DNA of 64,000 nt, taken from positions 134,330 through 198,329 of the forward strand of contig OY968788.1 of assembly GCA_963695435.1 (NCBI GenBank), given 5' to 3'. This document shows, piece after piece, positions 7,702 through 54,924 of this stretch (the first letter of the stretch is position 1; every line of letters begins with the position of its first letter). A program made the translations under genes and the position numbers. The notes below the pieces were generated by a model, which saw nothing but the letters and a program-made list of their open reading frames with translations, did no database searches and was not told where the DNA came from. This stretch comes from an uncultured bacterium (GTDB lineage Bacteria > Patescibacteriota > Kazan-3B-28).

Positions 7702-8379
7702 GTGGGGTATAATCTAGACATGAGCCAGCTCCCAGCAATACAAATTGTTTCTAAACAGCGAGTCTCTGATCACGGAGAGGTTTTTACATCCGAGAGGGAG
7801 GTAAACGCGATGCTTGATCTCGTAAAGCAGGAAACGGAGCGTATAGACTCACGTTTTCTTGAGCCGGCCTGCGGGACTGGTAACTTTTTAGTCGAGATTT
7901 TAAAAAGAAAGTTAGAAATAGTTAAAGGACGATATTCAAAGAACCAGATCGAATTCGAGCGTTATTCGGTCATCGCAATCTCGAGTATCTATGGAGTGGA
8001 CATCTTAGAGGACAATGTTATTGCATGTCGAGAGAGACTATATTCTGTTTTCGATGAGCACTATAACTCACTTTATACGGATAGGTGTAAAAAGGAATGC
8101 AAAGTAGCCGTCAGATTTATCTTGTCTCGAAATATATTATGGGGTGATGCCTTGACTTTTAAAGAGCCAAACGAAGAGGCTCGGCCAATTATTTTTTCTG
8201 AATGGAGCGCGGTAAACGGCAATCTGATCAAGAGGCGGGATTATACATTGGCTAATCTTCTTGAGAATCGGTCTCCCGAGGAAGGGACTTTGTTCTCTGA
8301 TATGGGGGACCGAGCTTTTGTTCCTAGACCAATTGCAGATTTCCCTTTGACACACTTTTTAGGCCTTGGAGTAGAATGA
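7702..8379 (+). CDS. Eco57I-type N6-adenine DNA methyltransferase N-terminal module (motifs X and I only; truncated paralogue of the next gene)
   Basis: GEVFTSEREVNAMLDL and FLEPACGTGNFLVEIL (motif I), YGVDILE. No NPPY. 4-bp overlap (ATGA) with the next ORF. Confidence 0.6.
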   Translation: MGYNLDMSQLPAIQIVSKQRVSDHGEVFTSEREVNAMLDLVKQETERIDSRFLEPACGTGNFLVEILKRKLEIVKGRYSKNQIEFERYSVIAISSIYGVDILEDNVIACRERLYSVFDEHYNSLYTDRCKKECKVAVRFILSRNILWGDALTFKEPNEEARPIIFSEWSAVNGNLIKRRDYTLANLLENRSPEEGTLFSDMGDRAFVPRPIADFPLTHFLGLGVE

Positions 8380-9875
8380 TGCAGACAAGTTATAACCCAG
8401 ACGTATTATCCTGTCTTGCCAACCTAAGTAATGATGAAGTTTTCACTTCACCAGCACTAGTAAATCAGATTCTAGACCTGCTGCCGAGTGATTTGTGGCA
8501 GAATAAGGGGGCTAAGTTCCTTGACCCGGTTACTAAATCAGGTGTGTTCCTAAGGGAAATTGCCTCTCGTTTAATTGTTGGTCTGGAAAAAGAAATCCCA
8601 GATCTACAAAAACGCATAAACCACATTTATCAAAATCAGCTTTATGGCGTCTCTATCACCGAACTCACCTCGTTTTTATCTCGCCGAAGCGTTTATTGCT
8701 CAAAGACAGCCAAAGGCAAGTACTCAGTTTGTGATAATTTCAAAAATGAACAAGGTAATATCATCTTTGACCGCATAGAGCACGCATGGATGAATGGAAA
8801 ATGTAAGTACTGTAATGCGAGCCAATCACTACACGATAGAGGTGAACTATTAGAAACTCATGCATATCAATTTATTCATACAAATGAACCAAATAAAATA
8901 TTTAATAATATGAAATTTGATGTAATCGTAGGTAATCCACCCTATCAGTTAAATGATGCTGGTGCACAATCTAGCGCAAGCCCGATTTATCATTATTTTG
9001 TCGAGCAGGCTATTAAGCTGAAACCTCAATATCTTTCAATGATTATTCCTGCTCGCTGGTATTCGGGCGGAAAGGGGCTTGATGATTTTAGAAGTAAAAT
9101 GTTGAATGATGAGAGGATCTCTGAAATTCATGATTATCCAGAGACTTCTGATTGTTTTCCGGGATTGAATATTAGAGGTGGTGTTTGTTATTTTCTTTGG
9201 GATAAGGAGCATACCGGTAAGTGTAAAGTGACTACGCATAAATCTGGAACTGTTGGAAAAACAGTTGAACGATCTTTGTTGGAGAAAGGTAGAGATGTGT
9301 TCATTAGATACAATGAGGCAATAAACATTTTACGGAAAGTTCAAGCATCAGATGAAGATTCTTTTTCAAGCTACGTCAGCGTTCGCAAGCCTTTTGGTTT
9401 ATCAACTGACACTAAGGGTAGGCCAGAACATTTTAAAGATAGCGTAAAGCTCTATCAAAATGGTGGGGTTGGGTATATCAAAAGGTCAGAAGTGGCAAAA
9501 AATGCTGGGTGGATAGATAAAACCAAGGTAATAGTTCCATATTCTAGTCCCGGGGACGATTCGTATCCACATTTGATTTTAAGTAAACCGATTATTGCTG
9601 AGACTAACTCATGCAGTACGGAAACCTATTTAGTTGTGGGTCCTTTTGACTCGAAACTTACATGCGAAAACGTAAGCTCTTACCTTAAAACTAGATTTGT
9701 AAGATTCTTAATACTTCTTCTTAAGCCGACTCAGCACGTTACCCAGAAAACATATGGCTTTGTCCCTGTCCAAAATTTTAAAGAAAAATGGACGGATGAA
9801 AAATTGTATAAGAAGTATGGTATCACGCAAGACGAAGTCAAATTTATAGAGTCGCTGATTCGGCCGATGGATTAA
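8376..9875 (+). CDS. Eco57I/Type IIG-III-like N6-adenine DNA methyltransferase
   Basis: DEVFTSPALVNQILDLL, a degenerate motif I FLDPVTKSGVFLREI, YGVSITE, motif IV VIVGNPPYQ. Confidence 0.7.
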   Translation: MMQTSYNPDVLSCLANLSNDEVFTSPALVNQILDLLPSDLWQNKGAKFLDPVTKSGVFLREIASRLIVGLEKEIPDLQKRINHIYQNQLYGVSITELTSFLSRRSVYCSKTAKGKYSVCDNFKNEQGNIIFDRIEHAWMNGKCKYCNASQSLHDRGELLETHAYQFIHTNEPNKIFNNMKFDVIVGNPPYQLNDAGAQSSASPIYHYFVEQAIKLKPQYLSMIIPARWYSGGKGLDDFRSKMLNDERISEIHDYPETSDCFPGLNIRGGVCYFLWDKEHTGKCKVTTHKSGTVGKTVERSLLEKGRDVFIRYNEAINILRKVQASDEDSFSSYVSVRKPFGLSTDTKGRPEHFKDSVKLYQNGGVGYIKRSEVAKNAGWIDKTKVIVPYSSPGDDSYPHLILSKPIIAETNSCSTETYLVVGPFDSKLTCENVSSYLKTRFVRFLILLLKPTQHVTQKTYGFVPVQNFKEKWTDEKLYKKYGITQDEVKFIESLIRPMD

Positions 9876-9880
9876 TTAAA

Positions 9881-12385
9881 ATGAGTAAATTTTTTCCACA
9901 ACGGCCGGAGGCGAACCCAGCAATTTACGCCTACGAAGACACAAACCCACAATACGAGGGTTTATTAAAAGTTGGTTTTACCACTACGGATGCTCGAGCT
10001 CGAGTGGCACAACAATACCCAACACGACGCCCAGGGGTATTACCTTACAAGATAGTTTTTGAAGAATCGGCTATGCGCAATGATGGCACTATTTTAACTG
10101 ACCATGATGTGCATCGTTATTTGCGCAAAAAAGGTATCGCAAACCCCAAAGGAGAATGGTTTAAGTGCAGTATAAAGGAAATCACTGCAGCTGTATTGGC
10201 TATTAAGAGTGGCGTTAAGAACGAAGATGATCGGACTCTTAGTTTTAGCATGCGGCCAGAGCAAGAAGAAGCAGTAGAGAAAACTATTTCGTATTTTAAG
10301 AGCTTTAGTAAAGAGAACAAGGGTAAAACTCCACACTTTCTTTGGAATGCAAAAATGCGTTTTGGGAAAACATTCGCTACATATCAGTTGGCAAAAAAAA
10401 TGGGATGGAAAAAAATACTAGTACTTACATTTAAGCCGGCAGTGCAGAGTGCTTGGGATGAGGATCTTCAAACACACATCGATTTTAAGGGTTGGCAATT
10501 TATTGCACCAAATGGTTTAACATTTGGGAGAGCTAATAAGAAAAATCCTTTTGTGTGCTTTGGTTCATTTCAGGATTATTTGGGGAAAAATACATCAACA
10601 GGCGGGATTAAAACGAAGAATGAATGGGTGCATGCTACCAATTGGGATTGTGTGGTATTTGATGAATATCATTACGGAGCTTGGCGAGAGAATGCAAAGG
10701 ATTTATTTGAAGCAGAGGGGGAAAGAGAGTTGGAATTTGGAGAGGGGGAGGGTATTGAGTATTTTGATGAAGGTGCAATGCCGATCACTACTAACGCGTA
10801 TCTGTATTTGTCTGGTACGCCATTTAGAGCTATTGCGTCTGGTGAGTTTATTGAAGAACAAATTTTCAACTGGACCTATTCGGATGAGCAGCGGGCAAAA
10901 GAGAATTGGAAGGGTGAGCCAAACCCGTATGCTTCTTTGCCAAGAATGGTGATGCTGACTTATCAACTGCCTGATTCTATCCGTGAAGTTGCCATGAAGG
11001 GGGAATTTAATGAGTTTGATTTAAACCTCTTTTTTAGTGCGGAGGGACTAGGAAGGAATGCAAAATTTAAATATGAAGATGAGGTTCAAAAATGGTTGGA
11101 CTTGATTCGAGGCTCTTTTTCCGAAACAACGATAGATAATTTAAAATTGGGGGCAAAAAAACCACCATTACCTTTCTCACACGCACCTTTACTAAATGTT
11201 CTATCACATACATTTTGGTTCTTGCCAAGTGTTGCTTCTTGCTATGCGATGAGAAATTTACTTGAACAAAGGCAAAATAAGTTTTATCACAACTACAAGG
11301 TGATTGTTGCGGCTGGGACTAGCGCGGGAATTGGTGTAGCGGCGCTCCCGCCAGTACAGCAGGCAATGGAAGATCCTCTAAGCTCAAAAACCATAACTCT
11401 ATCTTGTGGCAAACTTACAACAGGGGTGTCGGTCAAGCCATGGACAGGGATTTTTATGCTACGTAATTCGTCAAGTCCTGAAACTTATTTTCAAGCGGCT
11501 TTTCGTGTACAAACGCCTTGGACCGTGAATAACCCTGATAGTAAATCGCCCAATAAAGAAGAGGTTATCAAACAAGAGTGCTATGTTTTTGACTTTGCGC
11601 CGAACCGAGCTCTCAGACAAATTGCCGACTACGGTTGCCGTCTGAATGTAAATGAGTCTAACCCTGAAAAGAAAATTGATGAATTTATCCATTTTTTACC
11701 TGTGCTTGCTTATGACGGTAGTGCCATGAAGCAAATTGATGCGGCAGGTATCTTGGATATGGCAATGAGCGGCACTACCGCCACCTTGCTTGCAAGAAGG
11801 TGGGAAAGTGCGCTACTGGTCAATGTCGATAACAACACCTTGCAGCGTTTGATGAATAACCAAGACGCGATGGATGCCTTAATGAGTATTGAAGGTTTCC
11901 GTAGTTTAAATAAAGACATTGAGACTATTATTAATAAATCGGAAGCTGTACAAAAAATAAAGAAAGAGGCAAACGATAAAGAGTTAACTCCCAAGAAAGA
12001 GAAAGAGTTGAGCAAAGAGGAGAAAGAGTACAAAAGTATAAGAAAACAGATTCAGGAAAAACTTATAAAATTTGCTACTCGCATTCCGGTATTTATGTAT
12101 CTAACTGATTATCGCGAGAGAAGCTTGAAGGATGTTATTACCAAGCTTGAACCAGGTTTATTTAAAAAAGTAACAGGTCTTTCTGTTAAAGATTTTGAAC
12201 TATTGGTTAGCCTTGGTGTTTTTAATAGCGCACTCATGAATGATGCGGTGTATAAGTTTAAGAGATATGAGGACGCAAGTCTAGCGTATACGGGTATTAA
12301 TAAGCATGAGGGTGAGGATATTGGTCTTTATGACACAGTTATCAGTAACAAAGAATATAGGCAGACATTTGAAAATCATGAATAA
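9881..12385 (+). CDS. T5orf172 (GIY-YIG-like) domain fused to an SF2/ResIII-type helicase; candidate restriction (Res-like) subunit
   Basis: N-terminus IYAYEDT..EGLLKVGFTTTDARARV..GEWFKCSIKEI (T5orf172 pattern). Helicase motif I MRFGKTF, motif II VVFDEYHYG, motif III LSGTPFR, motif VI QAAFRVQTP. K/E-rich C-terminus. Confidence 0.7.
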   Translation: MSKFFPQRPEANPAIYAYEDTNPQYEGLLKVGFTTTDARARVAQQYPTRRPGVLPYKIVFEESAMRNDGTILTDHDVHRYLRKKGIANPKGEWFKCSIKEITAAVLAIKSGVKNEDDRTLSFSMRPEQEEAVEKTISYFKSFSKENKGKTPHFLWNAKMRFGKTFATYQLAKKMGWKKILVLTFKPAVQSAWDEDLQTHIDFKGWQFIAPNGLTFGRANKKNPFVCFGSFQDYLGKNTSTGGIKTKNEWVHATNWDCVVFDEYHYGAWRENAKDLFEAEGERELEFGEGEGIEYFDEGAMPITTNAYLYLSGTPFRAIASGEFIEEQIFNWTYSDEQRAKENWKGEPNPYASLPRMVMLTYQLPDSIREVAMKGEFNEFDLNLFFSAEGLGRNAKFKYEDEVQKWLDLIRGSFSETTIDNLKLGAKKPPLPFSHAPLLNVLSHTFWFLPSVASCYAMRNLLEQRQNKFYHNYKVIVAAGTSAGIGVAALPPVQQAMEDPLSSKTITLSCGKLTTGVSVKPWTGIFMLRNSSSPETYFQAAFRVQTPWTVNNPDSKSPNKEEVIKQECYVFDFAPNRALRQIADYGCRLNVNESNPEKKIDEFIHFLPVLAYDGSAMKQIDAAGILDMAMSGTTATLLARRWESALLVNVDNNTLQRLMNNQDAMDALMSIEGFRSLNKDIETIINKSEAVQKIKKEANDKELTPKKEKELSKEEKEYKSIRKQIQEKLIKFATRIPVFMYLTDYRERSLKDVITKLEPGLFKKVTGLSVKDFELLVSLGVFNSALMNDAVYKFKRYEDASLAYTGINKHEGEDIGLYDTVISNKEYRQTFENHE

Positions 12386-19397: not shown

Positions 19398-19472
19398 GCC
19401 GGAGTAGCTCAACGGTAGAGCAGCACTTTTGTAAAGTGAAGGTTGGGGGTTCGATTCCTCTCTCCGGCTCCA
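19398..19472 (+). tRNA. tRNA-Thr (anticodon TGT)
   Basis: Cloverleaf: acceptor gccggag/ctccggc, D-arm gctcaacggtagagc, anticodon loop tttgtaa, encoded CCA. Close to E. coli tRNA-Thr. Confidence 0.85.
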
Positions 19473-19473
19473 C

Positions 19474-19559
19474 GCCAAGGTACCGAAGCGGTCAAACGGG
19501 GCTGACTGTAAATCAGCTGGCTTACGCCTTCCTAGGTTCGAATCCTAGCCTTGGCACCA
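19474..19559 (+). tRNA. tRNA-Tyr (anticodon GTA), long variable arm
   Basis: Acceptor gccaagg/ccttggc, anticodon loop ctgtaaa, long variable arm, T-arm tagg-ttcgaat-ccta, CCA. Confidence 0.85.
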
Positions 19560-19562
19560 GAT

Positions 19563-19638
19563 GCCGACGTAGCTCAGCTGGTAGAGCACCTCCATGGTAA
19601 GGAGGGGGTCACCGGTTCAATCCCGGTCGTCGGCTCCA
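19563..19638 (+). tRNA. tRNA-Thr (anticodon GGT)
   Basis: Acceptor gccgacg/cgtcggc, D-arm tagctcagctggtagagc, anticodon loop atggtaa, T-arm accgg-ttcaatc-ccggt, CCA. Confidence 0.85.
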
Positions 19639-23668: not shown

Positions 23669-23817
23669 AGAATAAAGAAGCCCCGCCGAAAGGCGGGGCT
23701 TTTTGGTCTCTATTTGACCTTGGGGGCAGATGTGCTATCTTGCGGGTGGCGTGTTTTTGGCTCTAGAAGCCAAAAAGCGACTACTAGCTATTTGACATTT
23801 AGAAGGGGGTGATAACA

Positions 23818-24852
23818 ATGCGAAACGTTATTCTGTTTCTGTTAATAATGGGTCTGGTATCTTGCGTAACATCAAGAGTAACACGATGGACCAAGATGTC
23901 TGATCTAACGCCAAACAATCGAACAGCCTGGGAGAATCAGCTAAAACAATTGGTTCGGTATCCATCTAACCAAATACCCAGCGAGGATGGCGTTTGGGTG
24001 GACAACGGCTATGGCTGGCAAGGGTCATACTCTGACTCGGTGCCAGTACTGTTTTGTTCTCCGGAGTTTAGGGTGGTTCATGTGGGTTCCCACGGAGCAC
24101 CTTGGGTTTTGAAAGAGGGCGGCGTAGAAATCTTTTCAGAAAGTGAGTTCAGTCTCACTTCGGTCGATAGTGCCAATCATCCTGTTGAGAGGAAGGTTTT
24201 CAATCGAACAGTTGTTGGGAAGATTTCTCCGTTAGCGCAACTGACTTCGGATAAAGCGAAGGTGTTTCAGGTAATAATGCAGAAACGTTCAAAGACAGGA
24301 CTCTATTGGGTAGAAGATGGTAGCGGTATTGGTTTCATCTATGTTGATCCCAAGATGTCTTTCAATCTTTTCAATAGGGGGGAGAAACTAGACGGTACGG
24401 TTTCTATCTATGATGGGGACGGAAAGCTTTTGGAACAACATCCCGATATGTTCCAAAAGGAGCTTGGTATTCGGTTGGACAAGAGTATGAAAAAGTTTTC
24501 AGTGGAATGGAAAATGGATGGTTCAACCACCCTTTTCAACCACTGGGCGACTGTGATGGATTATTCTTACCCAATTCTGATAGATGCGCAGGGGGAGGTT
24601 GGGGTACCGACCTCGAGCTGGAACTTAACACAGGCTGATGTAATTTATGGCACTACCCCACCTAGCCCTTGGGCAAATTGCTATCGGGAGGGCTGGGTGC
24701 AAGTTAACATTGCCAGAAGTACTAATCTTAGCGCTTGGGTTGATGTGACGATTGATCTAGACGCTTCCACTCCTACTGGGATTATCCCAGTAGGAATAGC
24801 TTTTGTGACGATTACGGTGCCTTGCGATTCTACATCTACTATAGGAAGGTGA
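23818..24852 (+). CDS. hypothetical lipoprotein/secreted protein
   Basis: Signal peptide with lipobox-like LVSC. No known domain. Confidence 0.55.
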   Translation: MRNVILFLLIMGLVSCVTSRVTRWTKMSDLTPNNRTAWENQLKQLVRYPSNQIPSEDGVWVDNGYGWQGSYSDSVPVLFCSPEFRVVHVGSHGAPWVLKEGGVEIFSESEFSLTSVDSANHPVERKVFNRTVVGKISPLAQLTSDKAKVFQVIMQKRSKTGLYWVEDGSGIGFIYVDPKMSFNLFNRGEKLDGTVSIYDGDGKLLEQHPDMFQKELGIRLDKSMKKFSVEWKMDGSTTLFNHWATVMDYSYPILIDAQGEVGVPTSSWNLTQADVIYGTTPPSPWANCYREGWVQVNIARSTNLSAWVDVTIDLDASTPTGIIPVGIAFVTITVPCDSTSTIGR

Positions 24853-24857
24853 TTACA

Positions 24858-25388
24858 ATGCGAATTATTCTGATGTTTGTCGCGGTAGCGACCGTGATGT
24901 TGATGGCGGGGTGCAAGGCCATCTCGGGTCCGAAAGGGCCGAGCCAGCCCGGGACGTATCTCAATAAGCAGTGGGGACATCCGATTGTGCTGGTAAACCC
25001 GCTAGAGACCAAAGAAGAACAGAAGGCATGGAGCAATGATTTCGGTGCTAGCGGGGTAGACACTTTTCGGGTGGTAGACATTGATAAGACATTTGAAGTC
25101 CACTCGGAAGCTGTCATACACCCCGGTAGCGCGGAGTTTGAGCTCGATGTCTACCCTGGGTCATCGATGTACGGGTTACTGGGGGGGATGACCGCTGCTC
25201 CGGCTGACTATTTTAAGGACTACAAGGGTTCGACGGATAGTATCAAAGTTCTCTACATAGGGGAGTTTGACTTGGGCTCGAAAGACGATCCGAAGCCTAT
25301 ATCAAAATTCAGCGTGTTCCTTATTTCTCGGGGTCGGTATCTTATTGATGCCGTTGAAGGGGAGGGAAGGATACTCGTTGAATGGTAG
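24858..25388 (+). CDS. hypothetical lipoprotein
   Basis: Signal peptide with LMAGC lipobox. Its upstream RBS context resembles that of the preceding gene. Confidence 0.55.
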   Translation: MRIILMFVAVATVMLMAGCKAISGPKGPSQPGTYLNKQWGHPIVLVNPLETKEEQKAWSNDFGASGVDTFRVVDIDKTFEVHSEAVIHPGSAEFELDVYPGSSMYGLLGGMTAAPADYFKDYKGSTDSIKVLYIGEFDLGSKDDPKPISKFSVFLISRGRYLIDAVEGEGRILVEW

Positions 25389-25569
25389 GGAGATGAATGA
25401 ACATTGAAGTGGGCGGTCTGCTATGCAGATCCGCCCACTTTTAATATCCAAATATAACTAGAAAAACAGAAATAAAAAATCGCCAACTCCTTGACGATGA
25501 ATCTATCATAGCACACCCAAAACCAAAAAACTAGATTGTGCGAAAAAATAGACCAAGTAGAATTTAGTT

Positions 25570-27357
25570 GTGAGGGATTTTAAGAGATTACTTATAGAAA
25601 TGAAGCCGATGTATCCGGTTTTGTTTTTGATTACAGTCTTGGCGTTGATTAGTACCAGTGCCATTATGGCGACTCCTTGGTTGTATCGGGAGCTGATTAA
25701 TTTTCTGACCAGCTATAAGCTAAGTAAGCTATTCGCGGAGATTATCTCAACAAGAGATCCGGTAGAGATATTGCTCTGGTTGATAGGGATGTATTTTGTT
25801 CTGCAGATTCTGCTTACGGTGACTAGGGCGATAGAATTGTATTTTCGTAATGTATCTAGCACTCGGGCATATCTTTATTTTTCAGTTAAAGGGTTGCAGA
25901 AGTTGCATACTTTGCCGGTAGAGTATTTTGAGAAACGGTCGGCGGGGGCTTTGCGGGAAAGAGTTCAGAGTGGGGCAAGTGAAATGTTTGGAATTTCCCG
26001 AAATATTGTTTCGGAAGTTTTGCCGACTTTGCTGACTTTTATTGTTGCGGTGGTTGTGTTGATGAGGTTCGATTTTAGATTGTCTTTGGGTTTGGCAATT
26101 GCAGCGCCGATTTATATTGTGATTTCAATTTGGAGAGCGAAGATACTACGCTTTTGGCAAAAGAAATTCCGCAATGTGATGGAGAAGGGCGGAAAGTTGT
26201 TTATGGAGAATTTGTTTCACTATCAGCTGATAAAAGAATTTAGTAGGCAAACTTATGAAGAACAGCGGTTGGGCAAAACCTATGACAAGGGAGTAGAAAT
26301 TTCAAAACGAAAGGAGCGGGCAGTACGGGTGATGGGAATTGTCCGAGAGGTAGTGGCGGATTCTGCGTATATGTGGGTCTATGGGTATGGTGGCTATTTG
26401 GTGTTGAAGGGTCAGCTTTCTCTGGGTGACTTGATTTTATTTGTTGCTTATTTGGATAGGGTGTTTAGCCCTCTGCGTTGGGTGACGGATATTTACGATC
26501 AACTGCAGGTGGGGTTTGTATCGATTGGACGGTTGTTTAAAATTTGGGATATCAAACCGGCGGTGGATGATATTCCGAATGCTAAACCTTTGAAGGTGAC
26601 TAATGGTGAAATAAAGTTTGAGAAAGTTTCATTTACATACAGAAGTAGTAAGAGGCAAAAAGGAGAGCGAACGGTATTTCGCAACTTTAATCTGACGATT
26701 TACCCGCATGAGATGTTGGCGATTATCGGACCATCAGGCGGAGGAAAATCGACGCTGACTAAACTACTACTTCGATTGTATGACCCAGAAAAAGGGAGAA
26801 TTGTAATTGATGGGCAGGACATTAGCCAAGTGAAGCAGAATTCGGTGCGGGATAATATCGGAACTGTGATGCAGGAAGTCGGGGCGGTGAATCATACTTT
26901 GCAATACAATATCAAATATGGAAAACTGCAGGCGTCGATGGACAAAGTAATATTGGCAACGAAGGTCGCGAATTTGTATCAGTTCGTGATGTCTTTGAGA
27001 AACAAATTCAAAACTCGGATTGGGGAGCGGGGAGTGAAGTTGTCGGGCGGAGAGAAACAGCGATTGGCGATTGCGAGAGCGCTTTTGAAGAATGCGCCGA
27101 TTTTGGTTTTGGATGAGGCTACTAGTGCGCTTGATTCGGAGAATGAAAAATTGATTCAGGAAGCGTTGTGGAAATTGATTGAAGGACGGACGACAGTGGT
27201 GATTGCTCATCGGCTTTCGACGGTGAAACGGGCGGATAGGATTATTGTGGTGGAAAAGGGGAAGATTACCGAGCAGGGAACTCACAAGGAGCTGATGAAG
27301 AAGAGCGGATATTACCGCCGGCTGTTCACTTTGCAGGGGGCGATGTTGGAGGAGTAG
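25570..27357 (+). CDS. ABC transporter, fused permease/ATP-binding protein (MsbA-type exporter)
   Basis: N-terminal 6-TM domain; IIGPSGGGKSTL Walker A; LSGGEKQRLAIARAL signature; ILVLDEATSALD Walker B. Confidence 0.9.
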   Translation: MRDFKRLLIEMKPMYPVLFLITVLALISTSAIMATPWLYRELINFLTSYKLSKLFAEIISTRDPVEILLWLIGMYFVLQILLTVTRAIELYFRNVSSTRAYLYFSVKGLQKLHTLPVEYFEKRSAGALRERVQSGASEMFGISRNIVSEVLPTLLTFIVAVVVLMRFDFRLSLGLAIAAPIYIVISIWRAKILRFWQKKFRNVMEKGGKLFMENLFHYQLIKEFSRQTYEEQRLGKTYDKGVEISKRKERAVRVMGIVREVVADSAYMWVYGYGGYLVLKGQLSLGDLILFVAYLDRVFSPLRWVTDIYDQLQVGFVSIGRLFKIWDIKPAVDDIPNAKPLKVTNGEIKFEKVSFTYRSSKRQKGERTVFRNFNLTIYPHEMLAIIGPSGGGKSTLTKLLLRLYDPEKGRIVIDGQDISQVKQNSVRDNIGTVMQEVGAVNHTLQYNIKYGKLQASMDKVILATKVANLYQFVMSLRNKFKTRIGERGVKLSGGEKQRLAIARALLKNAPILVLDEATSALDSENEKLIQEALWKLIEGRTTVVIAHRLSTVKRADRIIVVEKGKITEQGTHKELMKKSGYYRRLFTLQGAMLEE

Positions 27358-27412
27358 GGGGTAGGGGTAGTATCTAGTATCTAGAGGCGAAAAGGATGAA
27401 AAATGAAGAAGG

Positions 27413-27892
27413 ATGATTAATAAGACTTTGGTTACCAGTTTGTCGAAGATGGTTAAGCGTGACCAGCAACTGCGTAAGCGCGCAGTTATTTCTGGTAATT
27501 TAAAAGATGGGCTGGCTATCAAAAAGATAGACGATTCTCACCACAAATGGCTAAAGAGTTTTATTCAAAAATATGGTTATCCCAATGTTCGATTAGTAGG
27601 GAAGAGGGGGATGCATGATTTTTGGTTACTCATTCAACACCAAGATGATAATTTAAAGCTACAAGAGGACTGTTTGGCTCACTGCAATTTTGAACAGAAA
27701 GACAAAGCATTTCTTACTGACAGGGTTTTATTGGCGCAGGGGAAAAAGCAGATTTATGGCACACAGTTCCATCGTGATACAAAAGGACAGTTGGTGCCTC
27801 GTCCAATACGCAATAAGGCTGGTCTAGATGCTAGGAGACGGTCAGTGGGTTTGGGATCTTTCAAGAAATATCAAGAGCATTTTGAGGGGTAG
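27413..27892 (+). CDS. hypothetical protein (159 aa)
   Basis: ORF only. Intrinsic terminator ccgcttctagagcgggtttttt at 27934-27956. Confidence 0.45.
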   Translation: MINKTLVTSLSKMVKRDQQLRKRAVISGNLKDGLAIKKIDDSHHKWLKSFIQKYGYPNVRLVGKRGMHDFWLLIQHQDDNLKLQEDCLAHCNFEQKDKAFLTDRVLLAQGKKQIYGTQFHRDTKGQLVPRPIRNKAGLDARRRSVGLGSFKKYQEHFEG

Positions 27893-27977
27893 GCTGGACG
27901 CTTGACTTTGGGGGGTTCTGTGGTATGATTTATCCGCTTCTAGAGCGGGTTTTTTATACCTAGTATAATCAGGTGTT

Positions 27978-30900
27978 ATGGGTAATGGAGGCAACAATAT
28001 GGAGAAGTTCGAAGTGCCGGATCAAATCTCGGCGGACTTGGTTACTCCAGAAGAGTCGGCTTTGGCTGAATTGATTGGTAAGGCTGAGCAGGCCGATAGA
28101 GAATCTTATGATGGAGCTTTTGTATCCTCTTCGGAGGTTCCTAAGCTGGCAGAAATATCGGATGAATGGGTGATGAGCGAAAGATGCCTTGAAGACCCCG
28201 AATATCTAAAATTTTTAAGTTCGCTAGAACAAGAATATATAGAACCTTCCCTAGAGAAAGGGCCGAAGCTGCTGAAGGATGTGGCTATTTTGTCGATCGA
28301 CTACGAAGGATTTACTCGTTTTGCTCGCCGTCTTACGGAAACAGTAGATTACTCCAAGTATGCCTCTCGCGAGATGGCTAAACACATGAGTTTGGGTTTG
28401 AACGAAGCCAGACGGCTTGTTGGGGCCTACGGGGGAATGATGGATGGTGTATTTGGTGATGGGACATCAGCTATTTTTTATGGCGATAAGGCGGTTGCCA
28501 AGGCAGTCTTGGCTGCTCAGGCGATAGAAGAAAAGATTAAAACATTGCAGGACATTAGTGTTCGTGGTGTTGAAGCTCCTTGGAAGGTACGATTTGGTAT
28601 CTCTTTTGGAGATGCAATGTTGGTTAGTTATGGTGACAACGAAAGAAGGGCAGACCTAACTGGTTCGGTTGTGGCGCAGGCCGAGGACTTGCAAAAAAAG
28701 GCTATCCCAGGCAAGTCCAGTATCGTGCTTTCAGAATCAGCCCAAGGGAAATTGAGCAGTGAGAGCGAGGTGTCATTTAGTGAAGATTTGAACGCCTATG
28801 CAGTGGGCAAGCTGGACAAGAAAGATAAAGAGATTGATCTCACGGAGGGAGGGATGCAGGCACCCCAAGAGCCTGAAGAGATACGCCGTTGGGCGGCTTT
28901 TCGCGAAAAACATTTTAGCCAGACTCGTCGCAAAGAAATAAGAAACCAATACTTCCGCGAACAAGAGCCAGATCCAGACATGCTGCCGATCAGCACTCTT
29001 TTTATACGCTTGAAGGGCTTGGATATGAGCGGAGAAAATTTTGAACAGACCAATTCCTACATGACATCTATTTTTGAAATTGCTAATAATTTTCGCGGTA
29101 AGGTTGATAAAGTACATCACGATTCAGTGATGATCAACTTTGTAGCTGGTGATCATGAGCTTAATAGCGCAATGGCAGCAGTACGAATTAGAGAAGAAAT
29201 AGAAACACTTAGGCAGCAGTTCGATGATTCGAAGCTTGATCCTAAAATGTCATGTACAAAAGGTGATGCCTTTTTGCTGGTCGTTGGCGGGAACAGAACT
29301 GTTTACGGAGAAAGTGTAAACCGAGCCTCACGCTTGCTGTATGCCAATAACCCAGGCGGTGGTTTGGTGGTAGATGAGTCAACCTTTTTGAAAATTAACC
29401 GAGCGCGGGTAGATGCAGAAGCGCTTAGACCGGTAGTGCTGAAAGACTATGAAGATAAACCGATCAACATCTATCTCATAAAGAACATTGAGCAAATAAC
29501 CTTCCGCCATGTTGATGTGGAGAAGGTGGTGGGCTTGGAACGAGAAACAAAATTATTGAATCAGTATTATGACGAGGCTAAGGCCGAAGGACGAGTGGTA
29601 GCGGTCAAAGGTCCTTCTGGTGCTGGTAAAACGCTGTTGGTGGCTCGCTTTATTCACGACAAAGAAGAAAAGGGCGTGAAGGTTATTGAGGGGCGTGCCG
29701 AAAGGTCACGCCAGAACATATCTTTTGCTGTTTGGAGAGATATTTTGGAAAGTGCCTTTGTTGTTCAGAATGTGGCCGACAAGGAAAGAAGGGGGGCAAT
29801 CGTTGAGGAGCATTTTAGGGTCAATGGACTAAGCGATGTCTATGGCGACAAGCTAGCATTGTTCAATGCTGTTTTGGATACAAAATTTAGTGAGACAGAC
29901 GCAACTCGATATCTTTCTACTGATGAGCGGGAAGAAAAAAGAGCCGAACTGATTGCTGAAACATTGAAGAGTTTTGCTAGCTTGAACCAGCCGGCGATTG
30001 TCTTTTTGGAAGATGTTCACTTTTTTGATAAAGACTCGGCTCAACTGGCCGCGAAGGTTATGCCAAAGCTTGAGCAGAATAGTTGTTTGGAAGTTCTGAC
30101 CACTTGGATTGAAGAAGAGGGCGATGAGCGGACAGAGCGATTAATGAACTTCCTAAAAAACCTTTCTCATTTTAGAGAAGTTCCAGTTGAATCTTTGCCG
30201 CTTTATAAAGAAAAGTATTACGATGATATTCCTGCGGCGCGAGAGTGGTGGCATCAAGCCAAAGAGAAATACCTCGCGTTGGCGAGCAATATCGGCATTG
30301 AATTCTTGCCCAGCGATCTTGATGAGAACGATAAAAACTATGAGAAAAAGGACAAGGCCTATGCGAGATTCTTTATTAATGTAGCTAGAACTTCTAAGGG
30401 GGTTCCGCGGCATGTGCTAGAGATATTGGAATATTTCACACTTTACAAGGGACGCGGCAAGGACTATTTCCGAGAGAAAGAACTTTCAGTTGACGGAGAA
30501 TCAAAGGTTTTTTATGCCCTGGGAGAAACTCGTATCGGCGACGAAGACTTGTTTGGCGAAGAGGAAATTAGTGATATTTATAAAATTGAACAACAAAAAC
30601 TGGAGAATCTCGGAGGAGACTCCAAGGCTATCTTGAGGGACGCTTCGGTAGTAGGTATGGTTTTTGACGAGAAGGTCTTGCAACACATATCGGGGTTAAG
30701 CGGAGAGAGAATTCAAAGAGCATTGCGTAACGCAAAAGTGGCTCGCATGGTTCGCTCTTTGGGTGAGGGTGAATGGGAGTTTATCCATGGTGTTACCCAA
30801 CATGCCATCTATGAAAGTATCGGTAAGATTCGTGAACGCCAAGCGAATCACCGGCTGATTGCTGAATATTTAGTAGAGTCCACGCCCGACAGCTTGAGAA

Positions 30901-32351
30901 ATATTGTGCATCACTATCGCCACAGTGATGATTACTTGAATGCGCTGAGATATTTGGATGAATATACTGAACAGCTGAAGAAGGTGCATTTGTGGGGAAC
31001 GGCCTTGGATCAAATTCGGTATGCTACTAATCTAGGTTTCGAGAGCGAAAAAAAGGAAGGTGTCTTTGAAAAAATCCAAGAAAGAGGTTGGCAGGTCTTT
31101 GATGAAACAAAGGGTTTTAGAACCTTGCGGCGTCTGGCCCCAGAGGAGAGGGATTGGCTAGTAGACGGGCAGGCCAAGCGTGCATTTAGGGCGGTATCTA
31201 TTTGGCGAGCTTCAGCAGGTGACAGAAAAAAAGCATTGGCTATTCTTGAATCGGCGAAGAAGGTATTTACAGAAAACCATTCTAGCACCGAAGAAGCTGA
31301 GCCGCATGATCAGATCATTTTGGCTCGTTTCCATAGAGAATTGGGAAAGGATAAAACCTATCTGGCTCTTTATGACGAAGCTCAAGCTGATTTGGATAAG
31401 GCCGGAGAGTTATTGGATGAAGTAGAGGCGGGTTTAGTTAGTAAGGATAGTTTGTTGTCCGACTATCGGGAGATGAGAGCTGATTTGTATGATGCCTTAG
31501 GGTGGCTAAATAAAAGAATGCGTAACTACCCGAAGGCTTTGGAGTGTTATCAAAAAGGGCTTCCATTTTCTGACAATTACGAAACAGAATTCTCTCTTCG
31601 TAACGGACTAGCATTCTCTTATAAAGACTTGGGCAGACCCAAGAAGGCACAAGACACATATGCAAAACTGTTAGAGTTGGCGGAGAGGGAGAATGATAAG
31701 GGGAACTTAGTAGTGATACTGAACAATAGCGCTAGTTTGAATGCTAGAATGGGGCGTCTGGAAGAGGCCGAGGGACTTCATAGAAGAGCAATAGAGCTAG
31801 GGGAACAAATATCTAAGACAACTAGTGTCTATTACTCTAAAGGTGGGCTGGCTTTCATTCTACGAATGAAAGGAGAGTATGAAAAGGCAGCTGATTTGTT
31901 TCGAGAATCTTCAGAATTTTTTGGCGACAGAGGGTCATCATATAATGCGAATGTTTCTAGGGCAGAGCTTGCTTTTTGTTTAATAAAATCGGGTGAGTTG
32001 GCTGAAGCGGAGCAAATTATAGATGGGCTAAGAAATAGTAAAGAAGCTCTTTTCCGGGGTAGGTCATATACCTTGGGAGCGATGATGGATATAGGGAGAG
32101 AGGGCTATCAAGTAGACGAGGAAATTTTGAGGGAATTTAATCGGGGAGTGGAACTTCTGAAAGAAAGCGGCAAAGAAGATGACTTGGCCTTTGATCTTTT
32201 GTACTTTGGTGAGCTTGAGATAGAAAACGGAAGAACAGAGGAAGGGTTGACAAAAGTAAGGGAAGCGAAAGATATTTACGAAAGAATCCAGGATTTGTCA
32301 GAGATGGGGAAGATAGAAAAAATATTGAAACGGTATCCTGCGGGGGAGTAG
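27978..32351 (+). CDS. tandem class III nucleotidyl cyclase (CHD) domains + STAND/AAA P-loop NTPase + TPR repeats
   Basis: CHD1 ILSIDYEGFTRFA and FGDGTSAIFYG (metal-binding Asps). CHD2 YGESVNRASRLL (Asn/Arg transition-state motif). P-loop VVAVKGPSGAGKTLL. Walker B IVFLEDVHFFD. C-terminal TPR units. Confidence 0.8.
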   Translation: MGNGGNNMEKFEVPDQISADLVTPEESALAELIGKAEQADRESYDGAFVSSSEVPKLAEISDEWVMSERCLEDPEYLKFLSSLEQEYIEPSLEKGPKLLKDVAILSIDYEGFTRFARRLTETVDYSKYASREMAKHMSLGLNEARRLVGAYGGMMDGVFGDGTSAIFYGDKAVAKAVLAAQAIEEKIKTLQDISVRGVEAPWKVRFGISFGDAMLVSYGDNERRADLTGSVVAQAEDLQKKAIPGKSSIVLSESAQGKLSSESEVSFSEDLNAYAVGKLDKKDKEIDLTEGGMQAPQEPEEIRRWAAFREKHFSQTRRKEIRNQYFREQEPDPDMLPISTLFIRLKGLDMSGENFEQTNSYMTSIFEIANNFRGKVDKVHHDSVMINFVAGDHELNSAMAAVRIREEIETLRQQFDDSKLDPKMSCTKGDAFLLVVGGNRTVYGESVNRASRLLYANNPGGGLVVDESTFLKINRARVDAEALRPVVLKDYEDKPINIYLIKNIEQITFRHVDVEKVVGLERETKLLNQYYDEAKAEGRVVAVKGPSGAGKTLLVARFIHDKEEKGVKVIEGRAERSRQNISFAVWRDILESAFVVQNVADKERRGAIVEEHFRVNGLSDVYGDKLALFNAVLDTKFSETDATRYLSTDEREEKRAELIAETLKSFASLNQPAIVFLEDVHFFDKDSAQLAAKVMPKLEQNSCLEVLTTWIEEEGDERTERLMNFLKNLSHFREVPVESLPLYKEKYYDDIPAAREWWHQAKEKYLALASNIGIEFLPSDLDENDKNYEKKDKAYARFFINVARTSKGVPRHVLEILEYFTLYKGRGKDYFREKELSVDGESKVFYALGETRIGDEDLFGEEEISDIYKIEQQKLENLGGDSKAILRDASVVGMVFDEKVLQHISGLSGERIQRALRNAKVARMVRSLGEGEWEFIHGVTQHAIYESIGKIRERQANHRLIAEYLVESTPDSLRNIVHHYRHSDDYLNALRYLDEYTEQLKKVHLWGTALDQIRYATNLGFESEKKEGVFEKIQERGWQVFDETKGFRTLRRLAPEERDWLVDGQAKRAFRAVSIWRASAGDRKKALAILESAKKVFTENHSSTEEAEPHDQIILARFHRELGKDKTYLALYDEAQADLDKAGELLDEVEAGLVSKDSLLSDYREMRADLYDALGWLNKRMRNYPKALECYQKGLPFSDNYETEFSLRNGLAFSYKDLGRPKKAQDTYAKLLELAERENDKGNLVVILNNSASLNARMGRLEEAEGLHRRAIELGEQISKTTSVYYSKGGLAFILRMKGEYEKAADLFRESSEFFGDRGSSYNANVSRAELAFCLIKSGELAEAEQIIDGLRNSKEALFRGRSYTLGAMMDIGREGYQVDEEILREFNRGVELLKESGKEDDLAFDLLYFGELEIENGRTEEGLTKVREAKDIYERIQDLSEMGKIEKILKRYPAGE

Positions 32352-32629: not shown

Positions 32630-34003
32630 TTATTGCATCGTTTCTTCCTCATCAAGGCTTGAGCCAAGTGGGTTGGCGCTGGAGCCTTTGGCGCCACCCA
32701 AGAGATTGCCAAAGAATGTAATTATGGTTTTGATGGCGCTGGGTTTTTCGACAACAACTTTGCCGGCAGAATCAAAAATCTTTGTACCAACAGCTATTTG
32801 TTTAAAGTCGTTGATTATTTGATTAAATCCGACTTGAAGTTTGGTAATAGCTTTTTGAGTTGCAGTCATGCCAGTAGTGACGGTATTAAGTTCTGCTTGA
32901 GAAACGACGGTAGAGTTTGTGGCTTCTACACGTGCGATAACTGCGGCATCAGAGAACAAAGTCGTGGTAGCGACTGAAGGTGTGATAGTAGTAGGAGCTG
33001 GGGTAGTGGTAGAAGCGCTAGCTGGACCAGCTAGAATGTTGCTGATTGCGTCGAGCAAAGTTTGCTTGGATGTGTCGTCAGTAGTTGTGGTTGGAGTAGT
33101 AGCAGTTGGTGTAGTTGTGCTTGGTGTAGTAGTGGCTGGAGTGACGGCTACAGGTTCTGGAACAACAGTAATACTGGCAGATGCAGATTTGCCATCTGCT
33201 GTAACTTTCACTGTTATGACGCCAGCCTCCGTTGTGGTGACTAACCCATCCTGATTTATCGTTGCAATTCCGTTTGGAATAGTAGCAAGACTCCACTTGA
33301 GGGGCAGTTGGCTGGAAGATATTGAAGAGCCGACTTGGTCCGTAGCTATGACAACGAATCTGCGGCTTTCTCCAGCAAGCATTTTTGTGGTAGAGGGGAG
33401 CACTGCGAGAGTTGCGACTGTATCAGCTGATACTGAAGGAGCAGCGCTTGGAGGGTTGATGCTAAGAGCGCGAATGGAATGAGTACCACCTACAAAATTA
33501 AGAGTCAATTCATTTGCGCCTGTGATAACTACTGGTTGACTTGAGCTAACAATATTAATTCCATTTAAGCTGATGCCACCGACATTACCCCAAGCATAAA
33601 TTGCACCGCTGAATGGGCTACCAAGTTTGATAGAAGCGGTGTATTTTTCACCTACAACGGTACCAGCCATACCTTTATTAGCGAGAGTGGAGACGCTGGA
33701 AGGAGTAAGTGTTAGTCTTCTAACACGATAAGTGTTTGTATCGCTGAGGATTGCGGGGTCAAAGGATAAAGTACTGTATGTAGTAGTACCTATAGTAAAA
33801 GCACTAGTTTCAGCATCTTGGGCGGTTAGGGCGGCGGAAGTAACGGCTTCGGTGCCAGCTAAGGTGTAGCCGACCACGGCCGCGAGCAATATAAGAATAG
33901 CTAGAGTAGCTTCTAGCTCCCGTTCGACCCAACCAATCCCCCGGTGGAGAAAGTTGTGCTTTTTCATATGTGTTTTTATTTTTGTTGGCGCTATTTTTGC
34001 CAA
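32630..34003 (-). CDS. N-anchored surface protein with Big_2 (Ig-like) domain and Thr/Pro-rich linker
   Basis: TM helix ELEATLAILILLAAVVGYTLAG. Big_2-like ATINQDGLVTTTEAGVITVKVTADGKSASASITV. TTTP repeats. Acidic tail SSLDEEETMQ. Confidence 0.7.
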   Translation of the reverse strand: MAKIAPTKIKTHMKKHNFLHRGIGWVERELEATLAILILLAAVVGYTLAGTEAVTSAALTAQDAETSAFTIGTTTYSTLSFDPAILSDTNTYRVRRLTLTPSSVSTLANKGMAGTVVGEKYTASIKLGSPFSGAIYAWGNVGGISLNGINIVSSSQPVVITGANELTLNFVGGTHSIRALSINPPSAAPSVSADTVATLAVLPSTTKMLAGESRRFVVIATDQVGSSISSSQLPLKWSLATIPNGIATINQDGLVTTTEAGVITVKVTADGKSASASITVVPEPVAVTPATTTPSTTTPTATTPTTTTDDTSKQTLLDAISNILAGPASASTTTPAPTTITPSVATTTLFSDAAVIARVEATNSTVVSQAELNTVTTGMTATQKAITKLQVGFNQIINDFKQIAVGTKIFDSAGKVVVEKPSAIKTIITFFGNLLGGAKGSSANPLGSSLDEEETMQ

Positions 34004-54847: not shown

Positions 54848-54924
54848 GGGCTTGTAGCTCAGTTGGTTAGAGCGTTCGGTTCACATCCGAAAGGTCACTG
54901 GTTCGAGTCCAGTCAGGCCCACCA
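54848..54924 (+). tRNA. tRNA-Val (anticodon CAC)
   Basis: Acceptor gggcttg/caggccc, D-arm gctcagttggttagagc, anticodon loop ttcacat, T-arm actgg-ttcgagt-ccagt, CCA. Confidence 0.85.

Follow-up and report, generated by a model that had tools for sequence, protein, structure and literature searches.

The gene described here lies in a 64,000-nucleotide stretch of DNA (the window) from an uncultured Patescibacteria bacterium of the Kazan-3B-28 lineage (GenBank assembly GCA_963695435.1, contig OY968788.1, positions 134,330 to 198,329 of the forward strand). It encodes a protein of up to 1457 amino acids (aa), in which two N-terminal cyclase-homology domains (CHDs) are followed by a STAND-type P-loop NTPase and a TPR array. 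We consider it reasonably probable that this protein is an adenylyl cyclase of C1/C2 type working within one chain, and that a STAND-TPR switch responding to ligand and nucleotide gates its activity. An open reading frame (ORF) of 4.4 kb with such features goes far beyond chance. A preliminary description, made by a model from the letters alone, had placed a 1457-aa ORF at 27978-32351; a single forward-strand ORF was indeed recovered there, with every motif listed at that time, i.e., SIDYEGFT (D108), FGDGTSAIF (D161), VVAQAED (V232/E236), ESVNRASRLL (N448/R452), GPSGAGKT (K551) and LEDVHFFD (D679).

Two Divergent Cyclase Domains in One Chain

Several lines of evidence identify both N-terminal domains as class III cyclase-homology domains. 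The two resemble each other in register, with 25% identity (E = 6e-4). A profile of domain 2 made of only two sequences, the protein and one close relative, matched Pseudomonas aeruginosa CyaB (PDB 3r5g) with an E-value of 9e-6, over a region spanning the K-x3-D and T-x2-G-x2-V-N-x-A-S-R-L motifs. Similarly, a profile of 10 sequences of the close clade matched CyaB (E = 5e-10), human soluble adenylyl cyclase (sAC, ADCY10; E = 4e-9), with domain 1 on C1 and domain 2 weakly on C2, and photoactivated cyclases through domain 2 (E = 1e-5). A remoter relative, P0037, passes Pfam on both cyclase domains, matches the window protein across both of them, and aligns with C1 and C2 of sAC with an E-value of 7e-29; it thereby links the window clade to sAC.

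An exhaustive HMMER search with residues 1-520 against 1.84 billion representative proteins gave only 12 proteins with E ≤ 1e-10, most of them 1380-1550 aa long and aligned over both domains. Behind them trailed ordinary single-domain cyclases, which matched one or the other of the two domains. Searches prefiltered by a word index, whether started from residues 1-520 or from the clade alignment, returned a decayed fragment (P0001) alone, and such prefilters thus miss the family.

The same conclusion is reached from the fold. The AlphaFold2 (AF2) model of residues 60-519 has a predicted local distance difference test (pLDDT) score of 83.9 and a predicted template modeling (pTM) score of 0.84. 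In a Foldseek comparison with the PDB, its best 24 matches all were the catalytic core of human sAC, covering both domains with template modeling (TM) scores of 0.69-0.73 and E-values of about 1e-23; the C1-C2 unit of AC9 came next. Both sAC and AC9 outrank 6yii, a class III adenylyl cyclase-like ATP-binding protein of P. aeruginosa. Modeling of the pair had been proposed in the preliminary description as a check on a C1/C2-like dimer, and the model does superpose on the whole two-domain core of sAC; from this global superposition, we infer that the residues of the active site would assemble at one interface.

A Probable Composite Active Site

The catalytic residues of sAC are D47 and D99, which bind the metals, and K144 in C1, and K334, T405, N412, and R416 in C2 (PMC12867704, PMC12250328). 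When the clade profile is aligned with sAC, D108 falls on D47, D161 on D99, and R205 on K144, and the motif TV.G..V.A.R of domain 2 falls on the segment from T405 to R416. By this alignment, domain 1 holds D108 and D161 for the metals and R205 for the phosphate, and domain 2 holds K378 for base recognition, T441 as the class IIIb Thr, N448, and R452. The full class III catalytic set (two metal Asp, the base pair, Asn and Arg) is therefore present as a composite over both domains. The symmetry-related pseudo-site is degenerate: V232 and E236 stand where domain 1 would have the Asn and Arg, and R344 occupies the position of the first metal Asp of domain 2. The alignments bear out the earlier observation that domain 1 keeps the two metal Asp and has lost the Asn/Arg motif that domain 2 retains. 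The single intramolecular site of C1/C2 type that had been deduced from it gains support from the profiles, the model and the conservation of residues, and seems likely.

Conservation was counted over nine full-length members of the clade, whose mean identity in these domains is 29-30%. D108, D161, R205, T441, and R452 are invariant in all nine and K378 is Lys in eight, while the pseudo-site positions drift across the clade. This is the pattern expected of a composite site under selection.

The invariant T441 falls on TVIG in sAC and on TIIG in CyaB (TIIGREVN). Following Linder and Schultz, we take class IIIb to be defined by Thr in place of Asp at the second of the substrate-specifying positions (T441 here, T405 in sAC). 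Guanylyl cyclases normally carry Glu and Cys at the base-specifying positions. Because K378 and T441 correspond to K334 and T405, the adenine-recognizing Lys/Thr pair of sAC-type (class IIIb) cyclases, the sequence predicts conversion of ATP to cAMP, a product that the preliminary description had held to be unpredictable.

The STAND-TPR Module and Its Relatives

Downstream of the second cyclase domain, Pfam recognizes AAA_16 at residues 516-700 (E = 3e-15) and TPR_12 with related models at about 1168-1353 (E = 5e-19), TPR_MalT being also matched. Walker A (GPSGAGKT, K551) and Walker B (FLEDVH, D679) are kept in eight of the nine clade members. The P-loop of P0008 is degenerate (GNGRS). The AF2 model of residues 505-1457 (pLDDT 86, pTM 0.78) joins a P-loop domain, a helical domain and a winged-helix region to a long TPR solenoid, that is, the Walker motifs, core and repeat sensor of a STAND NTPase. 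Its best PDB match in Foldseek is 6mfv, a STAND-TPR protein of Pyrococcus horikoshii (E = 7e-12), and Apaf-1, Avs3, and MalT come lower in the same list (Avs3 at rank 29, TM 0.16). No helix-turn-helix (HTH) or GerE Pfam match was found in the whole protein, and the model consists of TPR helices up to the C-terminus. The fusion to a STAND ATPase and a TPR array lacking an HTH output, as first described, is thus upheld by Pfam, AF2, and Foldseek.

Full-length mammalian sAC is composed of C1, a linker, C2, and a STAND P-loop NTPase region (PMC12802110). The window protein has the same order of parts, including the STAND P-loop region after C2, and the same distribution of catalytic residues, with Asp, Asp and Lys or Arg in C1 and Lys, Thr, Asn, and Arg in C2. 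It differs from ADCY10 by an identity of only about 16%, by its clear C-terminal TPR array and by its prokaryotic (Patescibacteria) origin. The C-terminal region of sAC comprises an autoinhibitory motif and a proposed haem domain. The layout CHD-CHD-AAA_16-TPR was found in all the relatives tested. Among these, the bacterial sAC-like proteins P0037, P0046, and P0087, named "adenylate cyclase" in IMG, share the architecture, and both their cyclase domains align with those of the window protein with the same complementary set of residues. However, P0037-type proteins pass PF00211 on both domains and keep the sAC-type motifs "K..GDA" in C1 and "INK...DKG" in C2, whereas the window clade, about 25% identical to them, fails Pfam. 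Bacterial sAC-like proteins and the STAND classification were reportedly described in 2004. The architecture is consequently not new, and the window protein is a very divergent Patescibacteria branch of a known sAC-like family with tandem cyclase, STAND, and TPR parts. The preliminary description had named the C1/C2 of mammalian adenylyl cyclase and "Avs-like" proteins as precedents; the C1/C2 logic stands, and the exact precedent is ADCY10 with its bacterial sAC-like relatives (C1-C2-STAND, with or without TPR).

Two other groups share part of this organization. STAND-TPR proteins such as PH0952 of P. horikoshii (6mfv), MalT, and Apaf-1 have the same P-loop nucleotide-binding domain, helical domain, winged helix and TPR sensor, with an HTH effector in MalT and a CARD in Apaf-1, in contrast to the N-terminal tandem cyclase of the window protein. 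Mycobacterial Rv0386-type proteins and those of TIGR03903 (TOMM kinase/cyclase, a kinase/cyclase fusion by its NCBIfam name) also present a cyclase domain directly before AAA_16 and then a TPR array. Indeed, TIGR03903 aligns to residues 359-709 with an E-value of 1e-21, at 76 bits against a family cut-off of 706. Yet these proteins have a single cyclase domain and must homodimerise, and Rv0386-type proteins carry a LuxR HTH; the window protein, with two cyclase domains and no HTH or GerE match, is not an Rv0386-type regulator.

Position and Inheritance of the Gene

The gene is embedded among housekeeping genes, with holB, tRNAs, L11, L1, Tmk, L10, and L7/L12 upstream and SecD, SecF, HisRS, HIT, YqeY, and FtsA downstream. 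Its nearest neighbors on the upstream side are genes for an ABC transporter and a DUF6624 protein; on the downstream side lies a convergent gene whose product is a surface protein of about 450 aa. Relatives of only 25-38% identity (P0003, P0005, P0009, P0011, and P0018) occupy the same block, rplJ-rplL(-tgt)-[gene]-(surface protein)-...-(manC-)secD-secF. Relatives are named "candidate division Kazan" and "Patescibacteria group bacterium," and a search for the locus with four close sequences gave only two loci in GTDB representative genomes. The same housekeeping position, held in six lineages only 25-38% identical, points to a vertically inherited, chromosomally fixed gene of Patescibacteria (candidate phyla radiation, CPR), not a mobile defence gene.

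A different context is presented by a 65% identical copy (L001/L004, positions 1-2981) that occupies the first bases of a 158 kb contig (JBBIRS010000005.1) in a metagenome-assembled genome (MAG) labeled Planctomycetales. This copy is decayed: cyclase domain 1 has lost 16 aa, a larger deletion of about 310 aa has taken out the STAND arm, and the gene is broken into at least three ORFs. Its neighbors encode PilB/PilT-type ATPases and UbiD. Possible explanations are pseudogenization, the binning of a Patescibacteria contig into the wrong genome, or a chimeric assembly.

Proposed Mechanism and Alternative Explanations

In the mechanism that we propose, the two cyclase-homology domains would fold together within one chain into a class IIIb-like C1/C2 pseudo-heterodimer with one active site, where D108 and D161 of domain 1 would hold the metals and R205 the phosphate, where K378 and T441 of domain 2 would recognize adenine and N448 and R452 would stabilize the transition state, and whose symmetry-related second site is degenerate. 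The predicted reaction would yield 3',5'-cAMP and pyrophosphate from ATP. The TPR array would bind a ligand or a protein, the AAA_16 NTPase would switch between an ADP-closed and an ATP-open or oligomeric state, and this STAND switch would relieve or impose autoinhibition of the N-terminal cyclase.

A number of observations weigh against this mechanism. On domain 1 (residues 102-267), the Pfam model PF00211 scored 18.4 bits, under its gathering cut-off of 21.9, and on the isolated domain 2, Pfam gave no cyclase match, PF00211 being absent and the sole match, ALS_ss_C, being judged spurious. Among the Pfam models that the preliminary description had named, AAA_16 and TPR were thus found, and PF00211, expected twice, was sub-threshold on one domain and missing on the other. 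The same description had taken a missing cyclase match on domain 2 as a reason to abandon its assignment; this is formally what Pfam returned, and it is overturned by the profile and structure comparisons with solved cyclase domains, on which ground we rejected the miss as evidence against a cyclase fold. The failure of Pfam shows how extreme the divergence of the cyclase domains is. It also carries a practical warning, as standard Pfam annotation gives "AAA ATPase / TPR" alone and misses both cyclase domains.

The catalytic Asn is a second difficulty. N448 is kept in the window protein, and the position is Asn in only four of the nine clade members, being V, I or S in the five others; this loss may indicate weak, reduced or altered catalysis in part of the clade. 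Regulation is a third, for K95 and R176, the bicarbonate residues of sAC, are replaced by G157 and E236, so that sAC-style regulation cannot simply be transferred to this protein, and canonical bicarbonate activation was set aside. The equivalents of K95 and R176 also vary among animal sACs (PMC12867704), and their absence lowers the case for a "bicarbonate-regulated" enzyme, not that for an "sAC-like" one. Moreover, no cNMP (cyclic nucleoside monophosphate)-binding domain, CRP-like receptor or phosphodiesterase was found among the scanned ORFs of at least 120 aa of the window (about 55 were taken as genes and nearly all of them scanned), which extends the earlier remark that no cNMP-binding effector gene is adjacent. 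A crude search for CRP and the phosphate-binding cassette in all six-frame ORFs of the window was equally negative, and the gene lists of the relatives' loci contain no cAMP receptor or phosphodiesterase. Finally, the decayed copy described above implies that the gene is dispensable at least in that genome.

The failure of the Pfam cyclase model, the loss of the Asn in five of nine members and the missing cNMP receptor in the window would all suit a pseudo-cyclase, namely a module that binds ATP or another nucleotide without cyclising it and through which the STAND-TPR scaffold would sense nucleotides, as was reportedly the case for 6yii. The 6yii protein, deposited as "Transcriptional regulator," is reportedly non-catalytic, whereas the window protein keeps all the canonical catalytic residues, including N448. 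Such an explanation is unlikely in our opinion, since both metal Asp, R205, K378, T441, and R452 are conserved at about 30% identity, a pattern expected of catalysis and not of mere binding, and since the model resembles sAC and AC9 more closely than 6yii. True cyclases in the wider family would also fit the neighborhood of P0037, its canonical member, where a gene for a histidine kinase with the layout cNMP_binding-HisKA-HATPase_c ends 10 nt upstream of the cyclase gene in what is likely a cyclase-receptor operon; the window gene has no such neighbor.

In two relatives' loci, a LigT / 2',5'-RNA-ligase-type 2H phosphoesterase is encoded between the cyclase gene and manC-secDF (L006, 14553-15110, and L007, 14343-14924, both on the reverse strand), and represents a possible partner in nucleotide turnover. 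The substrates of such 2H enzymes are cyclic phosphates, most often 2',3'. None turned up among the window genes scanned.

An active cyclase making another product, such as cGMP, cCMP/cUMP or a different nucleotide, is in our view quite improbable. The high divergence of the domains and the variable Asn leave some room for it, as do the PADLOC matches to PycC, which are weak and partial (E = 4e-10 on residues 128-268 and 1.5e-3 on 360-399). However, these matches do not exceed generic cyclase-domain similarity, the Lys/Thr pair matches the adenine-specific one of sAC and aligns with the CyaB motif, and it is not the Glu/Cys pair normal in guanylyl cyclases.

An anti-phage function, either as an Avs-like STAND protein or as a Pycsar-type system in which TPR sensing of a phage protein would trigger a cyclic nucleotide alarm, would suit the N-terminal enzymatic domain joined to STAND and a TPR sensor, an architecture that the preliminary description had likened to Avs-like proteins, and might call upon Avs3 in the Foldseek list and the PycC matches. 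This hardly credible reading is opposed by the housekeeping synteny shared by six lineages, by a PADLOC scan where no Avs hidden Markov model matched and the only matches were generic cyclase-domain and TPR similarity, and by the scanned ORFs of the 64 kb, where no effector or cNMP_binding gene was found and the only restriction-modification-like genes lie 16-20 kb away. Avs proteins carry a toxic N-terminal effector, whereas the effector here is a cyclase, and in Pycsar the PycC cyclase is encoded beside a cNMP-binding effector (PycTM or PycTIR), which this gene lacks.

Significance for Patescibacteria and for sAC

Patescibacteria genomes are expected to be smaller than 1 Mb. The conservation in position of a 1450-aa sensor enzyme at 25-38% identity suggests that cyclic-nucleotide signaling matters to these reduced bacteria, and a literature search found no paper treating an adenylate cyclase of Patescibacteria. 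More tentatively, and with considerable doubt, a small lineage of Patescibacteria may have kept an ancient, highly diverged sAC-type sensor as a core gene at a fixed locus, in which a host-derived or metabolic cue would pass through the TPR/STAND module to cAMP (with altered chemistry in the members lacking the Asn) and then to a receptor that is not of CAP type. If true, the protein would be one of very few large signaling proteins in such genomes and would belong to a second-messenger pathway, the first to be defined in these episymbionts.

In that case, the still unexplained STAND region of human sAC would gain a model in prokaryotes. What this large C-terminal region does in sAC is a standing question, and when full-length sAC was purified and studied in 2025, no regulator specific to that isoform emerged (PMC12802110). 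Prokaryotic C1-C2-STAND-TPR proteins are easier to express and could make this question testable, the less divergent bacterial relatives of P0037 type being closer models of sAC than the window protein. The gene is thus a plausible handle both on cAMP signaling in CPR bacteria and on the sAC STAND region.

Gene Start, Domain Boundaries, and Neighborhood

A public copy of the protein (P0002) is 100% identical, has 1450 aa and begins at M8, i.e., at ATG 27999. Since P0002 begins there and a GGAGG (27987-27991) precedes this codon with a spacing of 7 nt, ATG 27999 is probably the true start, although residues are numbered here from the first codon of the ORF. The upstream DUF6624 gene ends at 27892, and because a terminator-like hairpin and then a TATAAT box lie ahead of the cyclase gene (Table 1), the latter probably has its own promoter.

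Table 1. Positions in the window of the cyclase gene, its signals, the encoded domains and the tRNA genes
Feature	Positions	Strand	Basis
Whole ORF	27978..32351	+	uninterrupted, 1457 codons (1457 aa)
Terminator-like hairpin of the DUF6624 gene and T-run	27932-27950	+	terminator scan
TATAAT box	27964-27969	+	direct reading of the sequence
Acidic N-terminal tail, residues 1-62	27978..28163	+	20% mean pairwise identity in the clade; low pLDDT at the start of the model
Cyclase-homology domain 1 (C1-like), residues 63-275	28164..28802	+	profile, model, conservation; sub-threshold Pfam
Flexible C1-C2 linker, residues 276-298	28803..28871	+	pLDDT <50 at model residues 219-233; 13% clade identity
Cyclase-homology domain 2 (C2-like), residues 299-505	28872..29492	+	profile, model, conservation; no Pfam cyclase match
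STAND-type P-loop NTPase (AAA_16), residues 516-700	29523..30077	+	Pfam, motifs, model, Foldseek
STAND helical domain, winged helix and helical arm, residues 701-1127	30078..31358	+	AF2 secondary structure; Foldseek
C-terminal TPR sensor array, residues 1128-1440	31359..32297	+	Pfam, AF2 model, Foldseek
tRNA-Thr/Tyr/Thr	19398-19638		
tRNA-Val	54848-54924		

The product of the convergent downstream gene (32630-34003, reverse strand, probable start at M13) is about 445 aa long and has a transmembrane segment at its N-terminus and a Thr/Pro-rich linker; the window copy has no Pfam match, and relatives show a weak match to Big_2. This gene adjoins the cyclase gene in relatives too and is orthologous, with 36% identity to the copy of L002. 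As the whole region is syntenic, its adjacency was rejected as evidence for a functional partnership and is probably plain synteny.

On the other side, the cyclase gene of relatives is immediately preceded by tgt and a small gene (186 or 231 aa). In the window, that place is taken, at 23809-27892 on the forward strand, by two lipoprotein-like ORFs, an ABC exporter gene (25570-27357) and the DUF6624 gene (27413-27892), and tgt is missing; this suggests that the block, conserved in other respects, has undergone an insertion or rearrangement at this point. Further upstream (16-20 kb), the region 7702-12385 (forward strand, GC content 0.39-0.41) encodes MmeI/Eco57I-type methylase fragments and a T5orf172-ResIII helicase protein, and is a restriction-modification or defence-like islet unrelated to the cyclase gene. 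Over the whole window, the GC skew is strongly and uniformly positive, its cumulative curve climbs without reversal and the forward strand carries almost all genes, which fits one replichore of a small streamlined genome.

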